From IMG/VR virus record IMGVR_UViG_2724679236_000011, positions 1 to 5,221 of that record: a stretch of 5,221 bases of DNA; one strand, given 5' to 3'. This document shows positions 1 through 5,221 of the stretch, one piece after another. The notes beneath the pieces are model-generated. The model worked only from the letters and a program-made list of their open reading frames with translations, was not told where the DNA came from and made no database searches. This DNA comes from a virus. Its lineage: Duplodnaviria > Heunggongvirae > Uroviricota > Caudoviricetes. Within the stretch, counting starts at the first letter, position 1, and each line of letters begins with the position of its first letter. Made by a program: the position numbers and the translations under genes.

Positions 1-84
1 CAGAATCAGCCGGATGAAATTCCCGTTCTGGAATGGCAGGGAGTACGTGTCGTGACAACCGAAACTCTTGCTAGAGGGTATGGG
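1..84. repeat. Terminal inverted repeat, left copy (perfect reverse complement of 5138-5221)
   Basis: Positions 1-84 equal the reverse complement of 5138-5221 exactly; identity breaks at position 85 / 5137. Confidence 0.95.
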
Positions 85-780
85 GTCGATGAAGCCAATA
101 TTCGCAACAATTTGTCTCGCAACCTTGACCGCTTTGAAGAAGGTAAGCATTACTTTCTTCTAACTGGTTTAAAATTAAGAGAATTTAAGAACAGAGTAAC
201 CGGAAGTTACTCTGTTGGTAAGAACGCCAGAAGCCTTACACTCTGGACAGAGCGCGGCGCTGCACGCATGTCTAAGATCGTGGACACAAATGAAGCATGG
301 GCATTCTTTGAAAAACTGGAAGACAGCTACTTCCGGCAAAAAGAACAGCAACCGGTTGCAATCCCCCAAACATTACCAGAAGCCCTACGCCTGGCTGCCG
401 AACTGGCTGAACAAAAGCAGCTTCTGGAACAGAAAGCCCACCAGCTAAATCAGCAGCTGGTGGCCGCCGCTCCTAAGGTCGATTTTGCCGACCGGGTATC
501 AGTAGCTAAAGGGATCCTGATTGGGAATTTTGCAAAGGTTGTTGGACTTAAGCAAAATGCGCTGTTTGCCTGGTTACGGGAGAACGGCATCCTGATAGCG
601 TCCGGTGGACGTAAAAATGTGCCGTTCCAGCAGTACATCAACGCGGGGTATTTCACGGTGAAAGAAGTGGAAGATGGCTACCAGATACGGTTGACGCCTC
701 AATTAACGGGTAAAGGCCAGCAGTGGTTGACGCGTAAACTGCTCGATGCTGGCTTGTTAAAACCGGTGGCGGCTGAATAA
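1..780 (+). CDS. Antirepressor-like protein, 5'-truncated by window edge (ORF continues in frame from position 1; track start GTG at 52). N-terminal ORF6N/Rha-like region, coiled linker, C-terminal KilAC/Ant-type domain
   Basis: Long ORF open to window start; stop TAA 778-780. C-terminal motifs (FADRVSVAKGILIGNFAKVVGLKQNALFAWLRENGILIASGGRKNVPFQQYINAGYF) resemble phage antirepressor C-terminal domains as I recall them. A paralog lies inverted at 4451-5221. Confidence 0.7.
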   Translation, partial: QNQPDEIPVLEWQGVRVVTTETLARGYGVDEANIRNNLSRNLDRFEEGKHYFLLTGLKLREFKNRVTGSYSVGKNARSLTLWTERGAARMSKIVDTNEAWAFFEKLEDSYFRQKEQQPVAIPQTLPEALRLAAELAEQKQLLEQKAHQLNQQLVAAAPKVDFADRVSVAKGILIGNFAKVVGLKQNALFAWLRENGILIASGGRKNVPFQQYINAGYFTVKEVEDGYQIRLTPQLTGKGQQWLTRKLLDAGLLKPVAAE

Positions 781-787
781 TGGAAGA

Positions 788-818
788 ATGCCCGGTTGAT
801 GCCGGGCATAATTTATTG
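788..818. terminator. Bidirectional intrinsic terminator between convergent ant-like gene and c1
   Basis: Perfect 8-bp stem ATGCCCGG (788-795) / CCGGGCAT (802-809) with 6-nt loop, followed by AATTTATT on + strand and a T-rich stretch on the - strand side. Sits between stop codons at 778-780 (+) and 813-815 (-). Confidence 0.6.
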
Positions 819-1664
819 CGCGCTTTCGGGGTTGTCGTTTACTGGCTGCCCCTTCTTGGTTTTACGGCTGCGCGTAACTGATGCGGCTGACTTAACCTTT
901 TTCTCTTCGCGAGTGATGGCAATTTGTTTTTTTACATTTTCAATATCTGCCAGGCGATATATTTTTGCTTGCGGCCAGCGGTCGCAGATGATCGGTTCTA
1001 TGGAGTCATAAAGGCTAAATTTTGCTTTTTCGAATTCACCGTTGATGATAATTCCATCACGGAGAGTTTCATCGCAGATAAACACGCCACACAGTGGCAC
1101 ATGGTAACTAACTGATTTACCATCATTGTAGTTAGGGCTACTGGAAATGTAGTGGACGCGCAGCATTGTTTCGCTAAAGCCGTGTACGCGCATACGGAAT
1201 TTTTCATCCTCCGGGTACTGCTTCATTAGCTCTTTTGTTGCTTCCAGGTTCTCTATGTATTTCGCACTGTGCTCATTGATCCCCGCGCTTTTTTGGATGC
1301 GAATGTCCTTATCAATCAGATGAATAATGCGGCCAGCGGTCATGTTGACGCTGTTCACAGCCTCTGTCTGATAAGTTGTAACCTTACGCACACCGCGAAG
1401 GATGTTAGGCACTGGATATAAAATAGTCTTTGGGATATTGAGGTCTGGGTACTGTTCCAGTTCCCGCGCCATTAAAGTCCATTTATCAATTTCAGCCTGA
1501 ATGCTGTCAGTTTCTTTGAACGGTAGAACGACAACCGGGCGTACAGGACGACCGTCGCTGGCTGTATCAACGTGTTGGGCGCGTGCAACAGCTTTTTTTA
1601 GAAAGAGATCCCTGAAGCTGACGAACTCCTGGTACAGTTGTTCGCCGTAGACATAATTTATCAT
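813..1664 (-). CDS. c1: P1-type C1 repressor of lysis (283 aa)
   Basis: 283-aa ORF with strong SD (GGAGGAGG, reverse complement of 1668-1675) upstream of ATG. Length and N-terminus (MINYVYGEQLYQEF...) match my recollection of P1 C1. Sits directly downstream of a 69-aa coi-like ORF and near multiple C1-operator motifs, next to loxP/cre. Confidence 0.85.
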   Translation of the reverse strand: MINYVYGEQLYQEFVSFRDLFLKKAVARAQHVDTASDGRPVRPVVVLPFKETDSIQAEIDKWTLMARELEQYPDLNIPKTILYPVPNILRGVRKVTTYQTEAVNSVNMTAGRIIHLIDKDIRIQKSAGINEHSAKYIENLEATKELMKQYPEDEKFRMRVHGFSETMLRVHYISSSPNYNDGKSVSYHVPLCGVFICDETLRDGIIINGEFEKAKFSLYDSIEPIICDRWPQAKIYRLADIENVKKQIAITREEKKVKSAASVTRSRKTKKGQPVNDNPESAQ

Positions 1665-1728
1665 TGATCCTCCTCCAGAATTGACATGGTCAATAACGCC
1701 CGGCTGAGAAAACCGGTCATTACTGACC

Positions 1729-1774
1729 TATATTATAGAGGGATCAAACAAAAATAATAGATTTATTAGTGCAT
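1729..1774 (-). promoter_or_regulatory. c1-proximal promoter/operator region: -10 TATAAT on - strand (complement of 1733-1738) and a degenerate C1-operator-like site (complement of ~1758-1774)
   Basis: Minus-strand reading gives ...ATGCACTAATAAATCTA...TATAAT...; the operator-like site resembles ATTGCTCTAATAAATTT and overlaps the -35 position. A GATC lies in the spacer (1742-1745). Confidence 0.4.
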
Positions 1775-1984
1775 TTATTGTGAGTCCAACTGGTTAGTTG
1801 CCATGAGATATTCGATTGTGTCAGTGAGGTCATCCAGGTCGTCTTGGGTGATGCGGTACTCCTGATTGGATATCTTTGAGTAGTGTTCAGCAATGGCGCG
1901 GGCAGCGTCGGTTTCGGCAGGGTCTACAGATAAAGCGTTAGAGCAATGTCTAACGTCGTCGATGGTTGGTTGAATGAAAGCCAT
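1775..1984 (-). CDS. coi: Coi, C1 inactivator (69 aa)
   Basis: 69-aa acidic ORF immediately upstream of and co-oriented with c1, with a GAGG SD 8 nt before the ATG. Size and position match P1 coi in the immC operon. Confidence 0.75.
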   Translation of the reverse strand: MAFIQPTIDDVRHCSNALSVDPAETDAARAIAEHYSKISNQEYRITQDDLDDLTDTIEYLMATNQLDSQ

Positions 1985-2222
1985 AATTATGCCTCACTGT
2001 ATTGACAACACAGAGCCTGAAGCTCTGACCTACTGTTTCACCCATGATCCATGCTGGGGTAATCTAACAACATTGCGCTGTGTGTAAGATGAGCAATGCA
2101 TAGCTGTAATGCCGTTGTATAAGGTTTCCCTGTTTGCTCATTTCCTTCTGAGCCGCTCTACAACGCTGAAGACACATTAAATAGTGAATCCAAAGTCGTA
2201 TTACGTAACGACGGCAAAACTA

Positions 2223-2245
2223 TAATTTATTAGAGCAATTGTCAA
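2223..2245 (-). promoter_or_regulatory. C1 operator (minus orientation, ATTGCTCTAATAAATTA) abutting a consensus -35 TTGACA; promoter directed toward coi-c1
   Basis: Reverse complement of 2223-2239 is ATTGCTCTAATAAATTA (16/17 to the P1 C1 operator consensus as I recall it). Reverse complement of 2240-2245 is TTGACA; a -10-like TATAGT/TAGTTT lies 15-17 bp downstream on the - strand. The operator overlaps the promoter spacer, as expected for autorepression. Confidence 0.65.
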
Positions 2246-2305
2246 ACAACTATGAAAAACAATCCAGTTTTTAGCTGGTGGAGTGGGATTTTTCTCTCTA
2301 AATTT

Positions 2306-2322
2306 ATTGCTCTAATAATTAT
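2306..2322 (+). promoter_or_regulatory. C1 operator (plus orientation), ATTGCTCTAATAATTAT
   Basis: 13 consecutive matches to the operator consensus core. Inverted relative to the 2223-2239 operator, about 67 bp away, 44 bp upstream of loxP. Confidence 0.6.
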
Positions 2323-2365
2323 TGATTTTTGTGCACAGCTGGACGTAAACTCCTCTTCGGACCTG

Positions 2366-2399
2366 ATAACTTCGTATAGCATACATTATACGAAGTTAT
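2366..2399 (+). other. loxP: loxP recombination site (13-bp inverted arms ATAACTTCGTATA / TATACGAAGTTAT, 8-bp spacer GCATACAT)
   Basis: Exact 34-bp canonical loxP sequence read directly in the window. cre start lies 452 bp downstream, matching the P1 arrangement. Confidence 0.97.
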
Positions 2400-2588
2400 C
2401 TTAAGGGTTATTGAACATGATCAATTTACCTGTAAATCCATACAGTTCAATACCTTATTAGATTAAATAGTGAACACTTGATCATTTGATCAAGGTTGCG
2501 CTACGTAAAATCTGCGAAAAGTTGGCAGAGTTAGTGCTCCAGATTTCGCGTAGCGCGCTTAGCACCACCAATCAATCAGAGGTGAAAA
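2400..2588 (+). promoter_or_regulatory. cre upstream regulatory region with clustered GATC (Dam) sites and promoter-like elements
   Basis: GATC at 2419-2422, 2480-2483 and 2488-2491. The latter two sit in the near-palindrome TTGATCATTTGATCAA (2478-2493), which contains -35-like TTGATC hexamers, with TTGAAC at 2411-2416. Multiple cre promoters with Dam sensitivity are described for P1; exact promoter hexamers are not resolved here. Confidence 0.5.
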
Positions 2589-2810
2589 ATGGGATATTCA
2601 GCTGCTAAAGTGTCCACTCATCTTGAGCTTGAGAAAAACCGTGGTTACTGGCGGGCAAAATGCTTTGAGCGTGATAGTTACCAACTGTCATTATCTCGCG
2701 GTGAAGAGAAAATAGAACGCACACGCGGTCGCTGGCGTTTCTATGACGAGAACCATAACCAGGTAAAGGCAGAGCCGATCCTGTACACTTTACTTAAAAC
2801 CATTATCTGA
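2589..2810 (+). CDS. Hypothetical small basic protein (73 aa), immediately upstream of and probably co-transcribed with cre
   Basis: ATG preceded by strong SD AGAGGTGA (2578-2585) at 5-nt spacing. Stop TGA 2808-2810 lies 7 nt before the cre ATG (2818). No recognisable domain by eye. Confidence 0.5.
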   Translation: MGYSAAKVSTHLELEKNRGYWRAKCFERDSYQLSLSRGEEKIERTRGRWRFYDENHNQVKAEPILYTLLKTII

Positions 2811-2817
2811 GTGTTAA

Positions 2818-3849
2818 ATGTCCAATTTACTGACCGTTCACCAAAATTTGCCTGCATTGCCGGTCGATGCAACGAGTGATGAGGTTCGCAAGAACCTGAT
2901 GGATATGTTCAGGGATCGCCAGGCGTTTTCTGAGCATACCTGGAAAATGCTTCTGTCCGTTTGCCGGTCGTGGGCGGCATGGTGCAAGTTGAATAACCGG
3001 AAATGGTTTCCCGCAGAACCTGAAGATGTTCGCGATTATCTTCTATATCTTCAGGCGCGCGGTCTGGCAGTAAAAACTATCCAGCAACATTTGGGCCAGC
3101 TAAACATGCTGCATCGTCGGTCCGGGCTGCCACGACCAAGTGACAGCAATGCTGTTTCACTGGTCATGCGGCGGATCCGAAAAGAAAACGTTGATGCCGG
3201 TGAACGTGCAAAACAGGCATTGGCGTTCGAACGCACTGATTTCGACCAGGTTCGTTCACTCATGGAAAATAGCGATCGCTGCCAGGATATACGTAATCTG
3301 GCATTTCTGGGGATTGCTTATAACACCCTGTTACGTATAGCCGAAATTTCCAGGATCAGGGTTAAAGATATCTCACGTACTGACGGTGGGAGAATGTTAA
3401 TCCATATTGGCAGAACGAAAACGCTGGTTAGCACCGCTGGTGTAGAGAAGGCACTTAGCCTGGGGGTAACTAAACTGGTTGAGCGATGGATTTCTGTCTC
3501 TGGTGTGGCTGATGATCCGAATAACTACTTGTTTTGCCGGGTCAGAAAAAATGGTGTTGCCTCGCCATCATCCACCAGCCAGCTATCAACTCGCGCCCTG
3601 GAAGGGATTTTTGAAGCAACTCACCGATTGATTTACGGAGCTAAGGATGACTCTGGTCAGAGATACCTGGCCTGGTCTGGACACAGTGCCCGTGTCGGAG
3701 CCGCGCGAGATATGGCCCGCGCCGGAGTTTCAATACCGGAGATCATGCAAGCTGGTGGCTGGACCAACGTAAATATTGTCATGAACTATATCCGTAACCT
3801 GGATAGTGAAACAGGGGCAATGGTGCGCCTGCTGGAGGATGGCGATTAG
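2818..3849 (+). CDS. cre: Cre tyrosine site-specific recombinase (343 aa)
   Basis: Sequence essentially matches P1 Cre from memory (MSNLLTVHQNLPALPVDATSDEVRKNLMDMFRDRQAF...MVRLLEDGD). Catalytic-motif context is present (GHSARVG, GGWTN, MNYIRN with the tyrosine nucleophile). Adjacent to loxP. Confidence 0.97.
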   Translation: MSNLLTVHQNLPALPVDATSDEVRKNLMDMFRDRQAFSEHTWKMLLSVCRSWAAWCKLNNRKWFPAEPEDVRDYLLYLQARGLAVKTIQQHLGQLNMLHRRSGLPRPSDSNAVSLVMRRIRKENVDAGERAKQALAFERTDFDQVRSLMENSDRCQDIRNLAFLGIAYNTLLRIAEISRIRVKDISRTDGGRMLIHIGRTKTLVSTAGVEKALSLGVTKLVERWISVSGVADDPNNYLFCRVRKNGVASPSSTSQLSTRALEGIFEATHRLIYGAKDDSGQRYLAWSGHSARVGAARDMARAGVSIPEIMQAGGWTNVNIVMNYIRNLDSETGAMVRLLEDGD

Positions 3850-3866
3850 CCATTAACACGTAAATT

Positions 3867-3883
3867 ATTGCTCTAATTATTTG
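3867..3883 (+). promoter_or_regulatory. C1 operator-like site (ATTGCTCTAATTATTTG) upstream of the 103-aa ORF
   Basis: 12/17 match to the operator consensus with an intact ATTGCTCTAAT core. Located 17 bp after the cre stop and 17 bp before the next ATG. Confidence 0.55.
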
Positions 3884-3899
3884 GTATTTATGGTGACAT

Positions 3900-4211
3900 A
3901 TGAGAAAGGATTTCAACATCGACGGAAAATATGTAGTGCTGTCTGTAAGCACTAATATTCAGTCGCCAGCCGTCATTGTCACTGTAAAGCTGAGCGATAG
4001 AATGCCTGATATTGACTCAATATCCGTTGCGTTCCCTGTCAAAAGTATGCGTAGTGCTGAACATTTCGTGATGAATGCCACCGAGGAAGAAGCACGGCGC
4101 GGTTTTGCTAAAGTGATGTCTGAGTTTGGCGAATTCCTGGGGCACGTTAACAAAGCTCTCTCAATCAGTTCATCAAGGTCCAAAGCGTTAACAGCATCCA
4201 TGATGAAATAA
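3900..4211 (+). CDS. Hypothetical protein (103 aa), cre-downstream, likely C1-regulated
   Basis: ATG at 3900 with GGTGA SD 5 nt upstream and an operator-like site just upstream; stop TAA 4209-4211. It occupies the position of the cre-adjacent small gene in P1-like genomes, but I cannot confirm identity from memory. Confidence 0.55.
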   Translation: MRKDFNIDGKYVVLSVSTNIQSPAVIVTVKLSDRMPDIDSISVAFPVKSMRSAEHFVMNATEEEARRGFAKVMSEFGEFLGHVNKALSISSSRSKALTASMMK

Positions 4212-4235
4212 AAAAGCCTGGCAAGGAGCCAGGCT
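4203..4235 (-). terminator. Intrinsic terminator oriented for minus-strand transcripts
   Basis: Stem AGCCTGGC (4215-4222) / GCCAGGCT (4228-4235) with 5-nt loop. On the - strand it is followed by TTTTTTATTT (complement of 4203-4214). On the + strand there is no T-tract after the stem. Confidence 0.55.
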
Positions 4236-4341
4236 GCACAAAATAGCGAGTTTGTATCCCGCATCCAATCAATCGGAAGGGAGTATAGCACATAGGTACT
4301 GAAGTGAAAAAATGTGAATTGCGATAAATAAATCGCATGCT

Positions 4342-4365
4342 ATTGCTCTAATTAATTGCTACAAT
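4342..4365 (+). promoter_or_regulatory. C1 operator-like site (ATTGCTCTAATTAATTG) overlapping a -10-like TACAAT (4360-4365)
   Basis: Intact ATTGCTCTAAT core at 4342-4352, with TACAAT 2 bp beyond the operator. No credible ORF follows before the terminator at 4425-4448. Confidence 0.5.
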
Positions 4366-4424
4366 CAAGCCGTGGCGCTAGTCAACTACGAAGACATGGC
4401 CATTACCTGCTTCTTGAAATCATT

Positions 4425-4448
4425 GGCGGCCTAAAGGCCGCCTTTTTT
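4425..4448 (+). terminator. Rho-independent terminator (GGCGGCC-TAAA-GGCCGCC + TTTTTT)
   Basis: 7-bp GC stem (4425-4431 / 4436-4442), 4-nt loop, T6 run 4443-4448. Lies immediately 3' of the minus-strand ant-like gene stop (4451-4453), so it may act in both directions. Confidence 0.75.
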
Positions 4449-4450
4449 AA

Positions 4451-5221
4451 TCACTCAGCCGCTACAGGCTTTAATAAACTTGCATCGAGCAGTTTACGCG
4501 TCAACCACTGCTGGCCTTTCCCCGTTAGCTGGGGCGTCAACCGTATCTGGTAGCCATCTTCATCATCCAGCACCACTTCTTTCACCGTGAAATACCCGGC
4601 GTTGATGTATTGCTGGAACGGTACATTTTTACGTCCACCGGACGCTATCAGGATACCGTTCTCCCGTAACCAGGCAAACAGCGCGTTTTGCTTAAGTCCA
4701 ACAACCTTTGCAAAATTCCCAATCAGGATCCCCTTGGCCACTGATATCCGGTCGGCAAAATCGACTTTAGGGGCTGCGGCCACCAGCTGTTGTTCCAGCT
4801 GCATTTTCTGTTCAGCCAGTTCGGCAGCCAGGCGCAGGGCTTCTGGAAGCGTCTGGGGGATTGCAACCGGTTGCTGTTCTTTTTGTCGGAAGTAGCTGTC
4901 TTCCAGTTTTTCAAAGAATGCCCATGCCTGATCGGTTTCGAGCATTTTAGCGTGGCGGGCTGCGCCGCGTTCCGTCCAGAGAGTGAGGTGCTTTGCTCGC
5001 GGTGCGACTAAGTTACTTTGAGTAACCTTGTCCTTCAATTCTTTTAATTTTGAACCAGTTAGTAGAAAGTAATGTTTACCTTCCTCAAAGCGATCAGCAT
5101 TACGCGTATAGTTAACTTTGATGTTATTAGTTTCGGTCCCATACCCTCTAGCAAGAGTTTCGGTTGTCACGACACGTACTCCCTGCCATTCCAGAACGGG
5201 AATTTCATCCGGCTGATTCTG
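4451..5221 (-). CDS. Antirepressor-like protein paralog, 5'-truncated by window edge (ORF open to position 5221; track start GTG at 5170)
   Basis: Paralog of the 1-780 gene. Protein is identical over the first 11 residues, divergent over roughly residues 12-80, and near-identical thereafter apart from two in-frame indels and two substitutions. Confidence 0.7.
   Translation of the reverse strand, partial: QNQPDEIPVLEWQGVRVVTTETLARGYGTETNNIKVNYTRNADRFEEGKHYFLLTGSKLKELKDKVTQSNLVAPRAKHLTLWTERGAARHAKMLETDQAWAFFEKLEDSYFRQKEQQPVAIPQTLPEALRLAAELAEQKMQLEQQLVAAAPKVDFADRISVAKGILIGNFAKVVGLKQNALFAWLRENGILIASGGRKNVPFQQYINAGYFTVKEVVLDDEDGYQIRLTPQLTGKGQQWLTRKLLDASLLKPVAAE
5138..5221. repeat. Terminal inverted repeat, right copy
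   Basis: Reverse complement of 1-84, read directly. Confidence 0.95.

Follow-up and report, generated by a model that had tools for sequence, protein, structure and literature searches.

A multi-allelic ORF6N-core cassette in the antirepressor genes bracketing the immC-loxP-cre core of a P1-like phage-plasmid

The 5,221-nt stretch of viral DNA analysed here (positions 1–5,221 of IMG/VR record IMGVR_UViG_2724679236_000011; the window) is the immC-loxP-cre core of a P1-like phage-plasmid, and each of its ends cuts into an antirepressor (ant) gene, antL on the left and antR on the right. These two genes are mosaics made by recombination: a block in the core of their ORF6N domain differs strongly between them, and it belongs to an allelic series that has been reassorted among P1-like plasmids. 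Each gene stands in an operon with an intact antisense-control module. Taken together, we consider it likely that this block is a discrete, multi-allelic cassette of ~70 codons which is reassorted by recombination and probably has a role in specificity.

The window matches plasmid pEA4_97 of Escherichia albertii BIA_4 (NZ_CP117679.1, IncY, 97 kb) at 99.9% over its full length. Phages P1 and P7 match only positions 799–4448, with ~95% identity; therefore, both terminal antirepressor genes are additions to the P1 backbone. Features outside the window were read in a locus, L001, consisting of the window plus 8-kb flanks taken from NZ_CP117679.1. According to the annotation of this record, which agrees with the Pfam (ORF6N, ANT) and PHROG 63 assignments, antL encodes a protein of 366 aa from a start 321 nt upstream of the window, which contains its 3′ 259 codons plus stop (1–780, + strand). 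Likewise, antR encodes 363 aa and starts 321 nt beyond the other end, leaving its 3′ 256 codons plus stop inside (4451–5221, − strand). Given these annotated starts, the GTG start codons at positions 52 and 5170 proposed in a preliminary description of this DNA are artefacts of the window edges.

Mosaic structure of antL and antR

The two genes were compared by aligning positions 1–800 with the reverse complement of 4422–5221 and scoring identity in 30-nt windows. Identity is 100% over positions 1–84, drops to 55–80% in most windows over approximately 85–290, and ranges from 87 to 100% thereafter, with the exception of a 21-nt indel near 424–465 and a 12-nt indel at the junction 669|670. Inside the divergent block, identity climbs to 90% at the conserved RFEEGKHYF motif. 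In terms of single positions, the block preceding the cassette (1–84, + strand) shows 0/84 differences from the reverse complement of 5138–5221; the cassette itself (85–291, + strand, in antL; 4931–5137, − strand, in antR) differs at 73 of 207 nt, compared with 55 of 870 nt in the remainder of the two full-length genes (Fisher p = 7e-25). Thus, the confinement of the variability to one block, proposed in the preliminary description from the translations, is borne out by the nucleotide alignment, as are the identical start region and the return to near-identity after the block. The 84 bp reported there as a shared 5′ block are indeed identical, but they are only the 3′ end of a common 5′ region of ~600 bp that begins inside the upstream gene icd; in the last ~190 nt ahead of the cassette the two copies show a single mismatch.

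Downstream of the cassette lie the conserved last helix of ORF6N, a coiled linker and the KilAC domain (292–780, + strand, in antL). Over this part the only protein differences are V/I and G/S substitutions and two indels, namely QLLEQKAHQLN versus MQLEQ in the linker and a four-residue gap corresponding to the VLDD missing from antL (12-nt deletion at 669|670, + strand). Both in-frame indels had been described before and are present, but they are minority variants instead of a regular difference between the paralogs: the short linker of antR is dealt with below, and the 366-aa form carrying the deletion accounts for 3 of 120 close database proteins among the matches listed.

The origin of this pattern was addressed through the synonymous (dS) and nonsynonymous (dN) divergence between antL and antR. 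In the cassette, dS is 1.74 (saturated) and dN 0.33, giving dN/dS ~0.19. In the flanks, dS amounts to 0.20 in the N block, 0 in the 28 codons ahead of the cassette, 0.30 after the cassette and 0.37 in the KilAC domain. Because silent divergence five to nine times higher cannot be explained by constraint on the protein, the mosaic is due to recombination and not to uneven selection, and the blocks of the two genes have different histories. The low dN/dS further means that the cassette is old and under purifying selection, without recent diversification.

Domain organization of the Ant proteins

Both proteins encoded in the window match Pfam ORF6N (PF10543; E 1e-18 and 1e-20, 66.6–73.8 bits against a cut-off of 27.8) and ANT/KilAC (PF03374; E 1e-30 and 1e-32, 103–113 bits against 25.3). 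PHROG 63, "anti-repressor Ant", is matched with E 1e-134, residues 1–366 covering profile positions 13–367 of 431. These end-to-end assignments, and the alignment to the N domain and KilAC domain of P1 Ant1, confirm the antirepressor-like nature first suspected from the letters of the window. Ant has three parts: an N domain that is conserved and Ant1-specific, ORF6N in the centre, and a conserved linker and KilAC domain. The N domain, linker and KilAC are common to P1 Ant1 and to all the Ant proteins of the plasmid, including a third, canonical one (see below). Collinearity with P1 Ant1 is not full-length, however, since ORF6N takes up the central ~100 residues of the two flanking copies; this domain is absent from P1 and canonical Ant, and the central module of the latter has no Pfam match. 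The KilA protein of the same plasmid combines KilA-N with KilAC.

The variable block was correctly attributed to ORF6N, but its placement in an N-terminal domain does not hold, as it corresponds to Ant residues 136–204 in the centre of the protein. Nor is it a swap at domain borders: the Pfam search puts it in the ORF6N core, leaving conserved stretches of ~20 residues at the start and ~15 at the end of the domain. A PDB sequence search returned only chance-level matches to ribosomal protein L9. In an AlphaFold model of the window-encoded part, ORF6N has predicted local distance difference test (pLDDT) scores of 85–92; the KilAC half is of low confidence and was not used. In this model, the invariant residues form the first two strands, helix 20–27, the RFxEGKH turn, the LWTERGAAR strand and helix start, and the last helix. 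The variable residues occupy helix 31–40, strand 51–55, helix 56–65, loop 66–77 and the end of helix 84–94. This predicted arrangement fits a conserved scaffold bearing a variable recognition surface.

Related sequences are found outside P1-like elements. The proteins whose cores are 50–88% identical to one cassette type, type e, are short stand-alone ORF6N proteins of many enterobacterial prophages, as revealed by a search with the type-e core; they helped in the structure alignment, though not in counting full-length Ant. The antR ORF6N segment at window positions 4877–5041 has 82–85% nt identity to Hafnia phage Meifeng and to Yersinia phages vB_YpM_41 and vB_YpM_44, which are not P1-like. 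In addition, the ORF6N part (Ant 116–208; window 25–303 and its mirror) weakly matches three PADLOC models of PDC-S05, a candidate defence system (E 1e-5 to 3e-8).

A comparable pattern was seen between the canonical Ant of pEA4_97 (L002 12722–13756) and P1 ant1 (L004 540–1508), where the central block has dS 0.81 and dN 0.33 and the flanks dS 0.04–0.14. A swappable central module may thus be general to the Ant proteins of the P1 family.

An allelic series of cassettes in P1-like plasmids

The distribution of the cassette was examined in a panel of 14 P1-like plasmids (pEA4_97 and 13 others from E. coli, E. albertii and Salmonella) picked, non-randomly, from BLAST hit lists. We aligned 24 ORF6N-type ant copies and typed their blocks on the real loci. 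The nucleotide diversity (π) is 0.2–0.37 over Ant residues 131–203, compared with 0.01–0.07 over most other parts of the gene and ~0.1 in two short stretches. Within these 24 copies the cassette falls into at least six discrete types, a to f; antL carries type a and antR type b, as assigned by alignment and by this typing. Types a, b and c are each found at both the left position, between pacB and c1, and the right position, between c8 and mat. All 10 panel plasmids with two operons carry two different cassette types. Of the 25 copies sampled on either side of immC, 24 are intact. Two right-hand operons show signs of decay: that of pESBL-blaCTXM-55 (L016 7462–8577) has only a 291-nt ant fragment annotated, and the unannotated right icd of p06-3542 (L015) has a deletion of ~62 nt.

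A census of PLSDB was then made for types a, b, c and f, using the cassette alone as query (E ≤ 1e-60). Type a occurs at 100 places in 100 records with at least 99% identity, type b at 26 places in 26 records (at least 98%), type c at 12 places in 12 records (at least 99%), and type f at 50 places in 50 records (at least 95%). The backbones carrying the same type differ by 3–5%. Among plasmid records, an ORF6N-type ant adjoins c1 in ~319 and c8 in ~39; since these add up to about twice the number counted, the four types cover only about half of all copies, and more cassette types probably exist. When the full-length antL protein was used as query, all 120 matches listed carried cassette a and the long linker.

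Reassortment and gene conversion

The region upstream of ant, hereafter the head, and the C-terminal block of the gene are both linked to position, and the cassette is not. The heads were compared over the 620 nt upstream of every ant copy (L001, L005–L017). Each head sub-type occurs with at least two cassette types, and types a, b and c are each found behind both left- and right-type heads. The earlier suggestion that recombination in the shared 5′ region would re-pair a cassette with a different upstream regulator is thus supported by natural examples. The C-terminal block clusters by position (left–left distance 0.028) whatever the plasmid or cassette. Furthermore, the distance between left and right copies is the same within one plasmid as between plasmids, both for the N block (0.049 versus 0.050) and for the C block (0.054 versus 0.053); therefore, the flanks have not been homogenised inside each plasmid. 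Overall, these patterns of relatedness indicate crossovers in the conserved flanks as the route by which cassettes are exchanged, in some cases taking the N block along.

Gene conversion is also seen, at one place. The short linker of antR (core at 4781–4810, − strand, in a patch of ~30–60 nt) has 100% identity to P1 ant1 and does not resemble the remaining ORF6N-type copies, which identifies it as a conversion tract from a canonical-type ant. The gene conversion invoked in the preliminary description is therefore real for this patch, but does not extend to flanks kept alike by exchange within the plasmid. The same patch is found in plasmid pEA24_3, where it is joined to cassette a. There it belongs to an icd-ant operon lying between pro, a head-processing gene, and lyz (NZ_CP117623.1 6725–8034; L018 5226–6535), a fourth insertion site, which combines cassette a with a right-type head and the short linker. 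pEA24_3 has no fewer than two cassette types, c and a, and f is probably a third.

Operons and antisense RNA heads

The two genes are the distal parts of two complete immI-type operons (C4 RNA, icd, ant) which bracket immC-loxP-cre in convergent, inverted orientation. Their homology begins ~30 nt inside icd and ends with the stop codon of ant (L001 7489–8776 against 13733–12455, 87.6% identity), and upstream of this point the left and right heads cannot be aligned with each other. Each ant overlaps the upstream icd-like gene by 4 nt, and the internal Ant2 start (AAGGAGG-N8-ATG at codon 84) is kept in 26/26 copies.

Rfam detects a C4 RNA (RF01695) upstream of each icd, outside the window, with 75 bits on the left and 63.6 on the right (gathering score 45). 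The leaders, also assigned with Rfam, are isrK-like on the left and c4-a1b1 on the right. isrK is an Hfq-binding small RNA (sRNA) of Salmonella Gifsy-1, and its match in the left head (L001 7197–7275) reaches 59 bits against a gathering score of 50, which suggests that this head is one of the antirepressor control regions of the isrK-orf45-anrP lineage. The C4 loops are complementary, by exact matches of 6–7 nt, to the a1/b1 sites of the leader and to the a2/b2 sites at the icd ribosome-binding site (RBS). C4 specificity is itself combinatorial: across the panel, loop, leader and icd-RBS sites co-vary, and variants of the a-site and b-site give four combinations in left heads and four in right heads plus the P1 type; as the G-U-tolerant loop matcher at times gives a spurious earlier match, the right-head calls rest on alignment. 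Such joint change at three places is an argument for both heads being functional antisense modules.

A third, canonical immI (c4, icd and a 344-aa ant) adjoins kilA and repL at NZ_CP117679.1 12722–14226. Its C4 RNA has the same a′/b′ loops as that of the right extra operon and differs from it only by compensatory changes in stem 1; judging from these loops, the canonical and right-hand operons are probably cross-regulated.

A perfect C1-operator 17-mer lies upstream of the right head. The left operator is also present, at the pacB end, but in pEA4_97 it is separated from the left C4 gene, c4L, by an insertion sequence (IS). This element (L001 6005–7305; an open reading frame, ORF, for a 395-aa transposase with helix-turn-helix, HTH, and rve domains) sits between the operator and the c4L leader, and the same insertion is carried by E. 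albertii 2012EL-1823B (L011).

Alternative explanations

Several other explanations of the mosaic were weighed. If the two inverted copies evolved in concert, conversion would homogenise their flanks and the centre would escape because selection keeps it different. The identity of positions 1–84, the single mismatch in the ~190 nt ahead of the cassette, the genuine conversion patch in antR and the presence of long inverted repeats on one replicon would all suit this explanation. It is nevertheless unlikely, because in the 10 two-operon plasmids the left–right distance within a plasmid equals that between plasmids, C blocks group by position, flank dS between antL and antR is 0.20–0.37 and not near zero, and the proven patch came from a canonical-type ant and not from the partner copy. 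The same inverted repeats, 1.3 kb long around a 3.7-kb segment, could in principle serve as an inversion switch that flips c1-loxP-cre and re-pairs the 5′ and 3′ halves of the ant genes as in-frame chimeras; P1 itself has an invertible C segment. Such a switch appears very improbable, since c1 is on the pacB side in 11/11 two-operon loci and no dedicated invertase gene lies beside the repeats. We also searched with an artificial sequence for the inverted junction (the 3′ end of pacB, then left head, icd and ant, joined to c8/cre), and no record covered at least 80% of it among 806 matching plasmid and 986 matching E. coli records; only ~39 two-operon plasmids could invert, so that the effective result in these two collections is 0 of a few dozen. 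Diversification in place, by targeted mutagenesis (for instance by a diversity-generating retroelement) or by recent positive selection, would account for variation limited to one short stretch of a conserved gene. However, a dN/dS of ~0.19 with saturated dS, discrete types that are identical across many plasmids, and changes not limited to particular bases make it scarcely credible; neither a reverse transcriptase nor a template repeat is annotated in pEA4_97.

More weight must be given to a neutral mosaic, in which the types are equivalent C1-binding antirepressors derived from different phage ancestors and have no bearing on specificity. Mosaicism is the rule for genes of temperate phages, ORF6N cores similar to those described here are common in enterobacterial prophages (with the 82–85% segments in Hafnia and Yersinia phages), and C1 is nearly invariant and does not co-vary with the cassette. 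Indeed, C1 is at least 98% identical across the panel irrespective of cassette type, and one identical C1 protein accompanies the cassette sets a, a/c, f/b and a/pseudogene. We regard this explanation as possible but rather doubtful, given that the boundaries are sharp and common to all types, that each type is near-invariant on backbones diverged by 3–5%, and that the variation falls on particular helices and one loop, with RFxEGKH and LWTERGAAR invariant. It is also at odds with the finding that no type occurs twice in one record (188 occurrences of the four types in PLSDB), a suggestive result which rests on ~39 two-operon plasmids, many of them close kin. This narrow base is among the points that weigh against a specificity role of a reassorted cassette. 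Another concerns C1, the known target of P1 Ant: if every type binds this near-invariant repressor, the variation may be immaterial. Finally, the IS cuts the left operon of pEA4_97 from its native operator and promoter, so that antL expression may be abnormal in this plasmid. As for the invariance of C1, it implies that the specificity targets of the cassette, if any, are more likely outside the element (DNA sites, repressors of other prophages) or partners other than C1.

Possible function of the cassette

According to the explanation that we favour, at least six old types circulate among P1-like plasmids, antL and antR simply carrying a and b. Homologous recombination in the conserved flanks moves cassettes between positions, regulatory heads and plasmids, and short patches of gene conversion are found besides. 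By analogy with P1 immI, each operon would make Ant1 and Ant2 when its own C4 RNA is absent or mismatched and fails to silence it; production of Ant upon C4 failure is established for P1. In the structural model, the cassette falls on helices and a loop of a small domain resembling a winged helix, parts with which folds of this kind usually touch their partner. Probably, it would set the DNA site or protein recognised by Ant, and the N and KilAC parts would provide a common activity. An element with two to four operons of differing C4 and cassette type could then act on a wider range of rivals or targets. A role of the cassette in target specificity is plausible.

A more elaborate proposal is that these elements use a two-layer combinatorial system of attack and resistance, in which each of the two to four operons would have one specificity in its C4 RNA and another in the protein, through the ORF6N cassette. 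The cassette would pick the repressor or DNA site that is hit, possibly in other prophages rather than in the element's own C1, and selection would keep different cassettes in each element and spread them by recombination in the flanks. We put this forward tentatively, as an idea that is more probably wrong than right.

Phage-plasmids of the P1 kind, frequent in E. coli, E. albertii and Salmonella, bring with them genes for resistance and virulence; coexistence, exclusion and induction between them depend on their immunity circuits. The classic case, P1/P7 heteroimmunity, is accounted for by C4 RNA differences alone. Many natural elements, as our analysis shows, have one to three additional immI-type operons which vary in both C4 specificity and antirepressor cassette. 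To our knowledge, target choice by KilAC-type antirepressors is poorly understood. If the cassette does set specificity, it would represent a second, protein-level axis of immunity type and offer a unit of ~70 codons that can be swapped experimentally to study this choice. If it does not, it would be a clean case of allele-level mosaicism in a phage regulatory gene.

Relation to known systems

The operons described here resemble immI of P1 and P7 in gene order, icd-ant overlap, in-frame Ant2 start with its own RBS, a C1-operator-like site upstream, a C4 RNA above the Rfam threshold, and loop-target complementarity at the icd RBS. P1 Ant1 and the extra Ant proteins have ~55% aa identity in the N domain and ~89% in KilAC. 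On the other hand, the extra copies occupy the non-canonical positions pacB|c1 and c8|mat, their central module is ORF6N where that of canonical Ant is shorter and without Pfam match, and the left head, whose leader is isrK-like, represents a C4 lineage of its own.

Domain shuffling among the phage regulators containing KilA-N, Bro-N, ORF6N, Rha and ANT/KilAC was reportedly described by Iyer, Koonin and Aravind in 2002. The Ant proteins are similar in that a variable DNA-binding-type module on the N side is joined to KilAC, but here the breakpoints fall inside ORF6N, the unit exchanged being only the core of one domain, and its variants are alleles of one gene.

The left head can be compared with the isrK-orf45-anrP locus of Salmonella Gifsy-1 (Hershko-Shalev et al., 2016; PMC4825925). 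The two appear to have in common an sRNA leader, a short upstream ORF translationally coupled to the antirepressor, and control by RNA pairing at the RBS of this ORF. They differ in that translation of anrP is activated in trans by IsrK, C4 of P1 being a repressor, and in that the left head also has a C4 RNA between leader and icd.

Extra ant genes in P1-like plasmids have been noticed before: an ant insertion between pacB and c1 in pTZ20_1P and RCS47, and icd-ant homologues after cre in pSvP1 (Venturini et al., 2019; PMC6906374). In that study they are given as regions of difference, and the C4 heads, ORF6N cassettes and reassortment are not described. No description of an allelic ORF6N-core cassette or of its reassortment was found in the literature searched, the coverage of which was incomplete. 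The immI system of P1 and P7 is the parent of the kind of operon seen here.

Other features of the window and its flanks

Between the two ant genes, the window contains c1, encoding the primary repressor (813–1664, − strand; 283 aa), which is annotated as phage repressor protein C1 and has 95% nt identity to the immC region of P1/P7. It is followed by coi, for the C1 inactivator (1775–1984, − strand; 69 aa), annotated as c1 repressor inactivator. The Coi protein is otherwise near-invariant, but that of E. albertii 2012EL-1823B (L011 4778–4996) is only 84% identical. The exact 34-bp loxP sequence is located at 2366–2399, and cra (2589–2810, + strand) and the cre recombinase gene (2818–3849, + strand) were identified from P1 records, the latter also by its Pfam Phage_integrase match. 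An additional ORF of 396 nt lies between cra and cre in the plasmid of E. coli 2013C-3252 (L013 5848–6243). The last complete gene is c8-like (3900–4211, + strand; 103 aa) and is annotated as a lysogeny establishment protein.

C1-operator-like 17-mers are present in the window at 1759–1775 and 2223–2239 on the − strand and at 2306–2322 and 4342–4358 on the + strand. In L001 as a whole there are 7 such sites, compared with 0.11 expected by chance.

To the right of the window (L001 13760–21221), the right operon of pEA4_97, which sits at the place of ref in P1, is followed by cargo genes for an HTH protein, DsbA, a fimbrial chaperone and an usher. The other two-operon plasmids have mat where pEA4_97 has this cargo.

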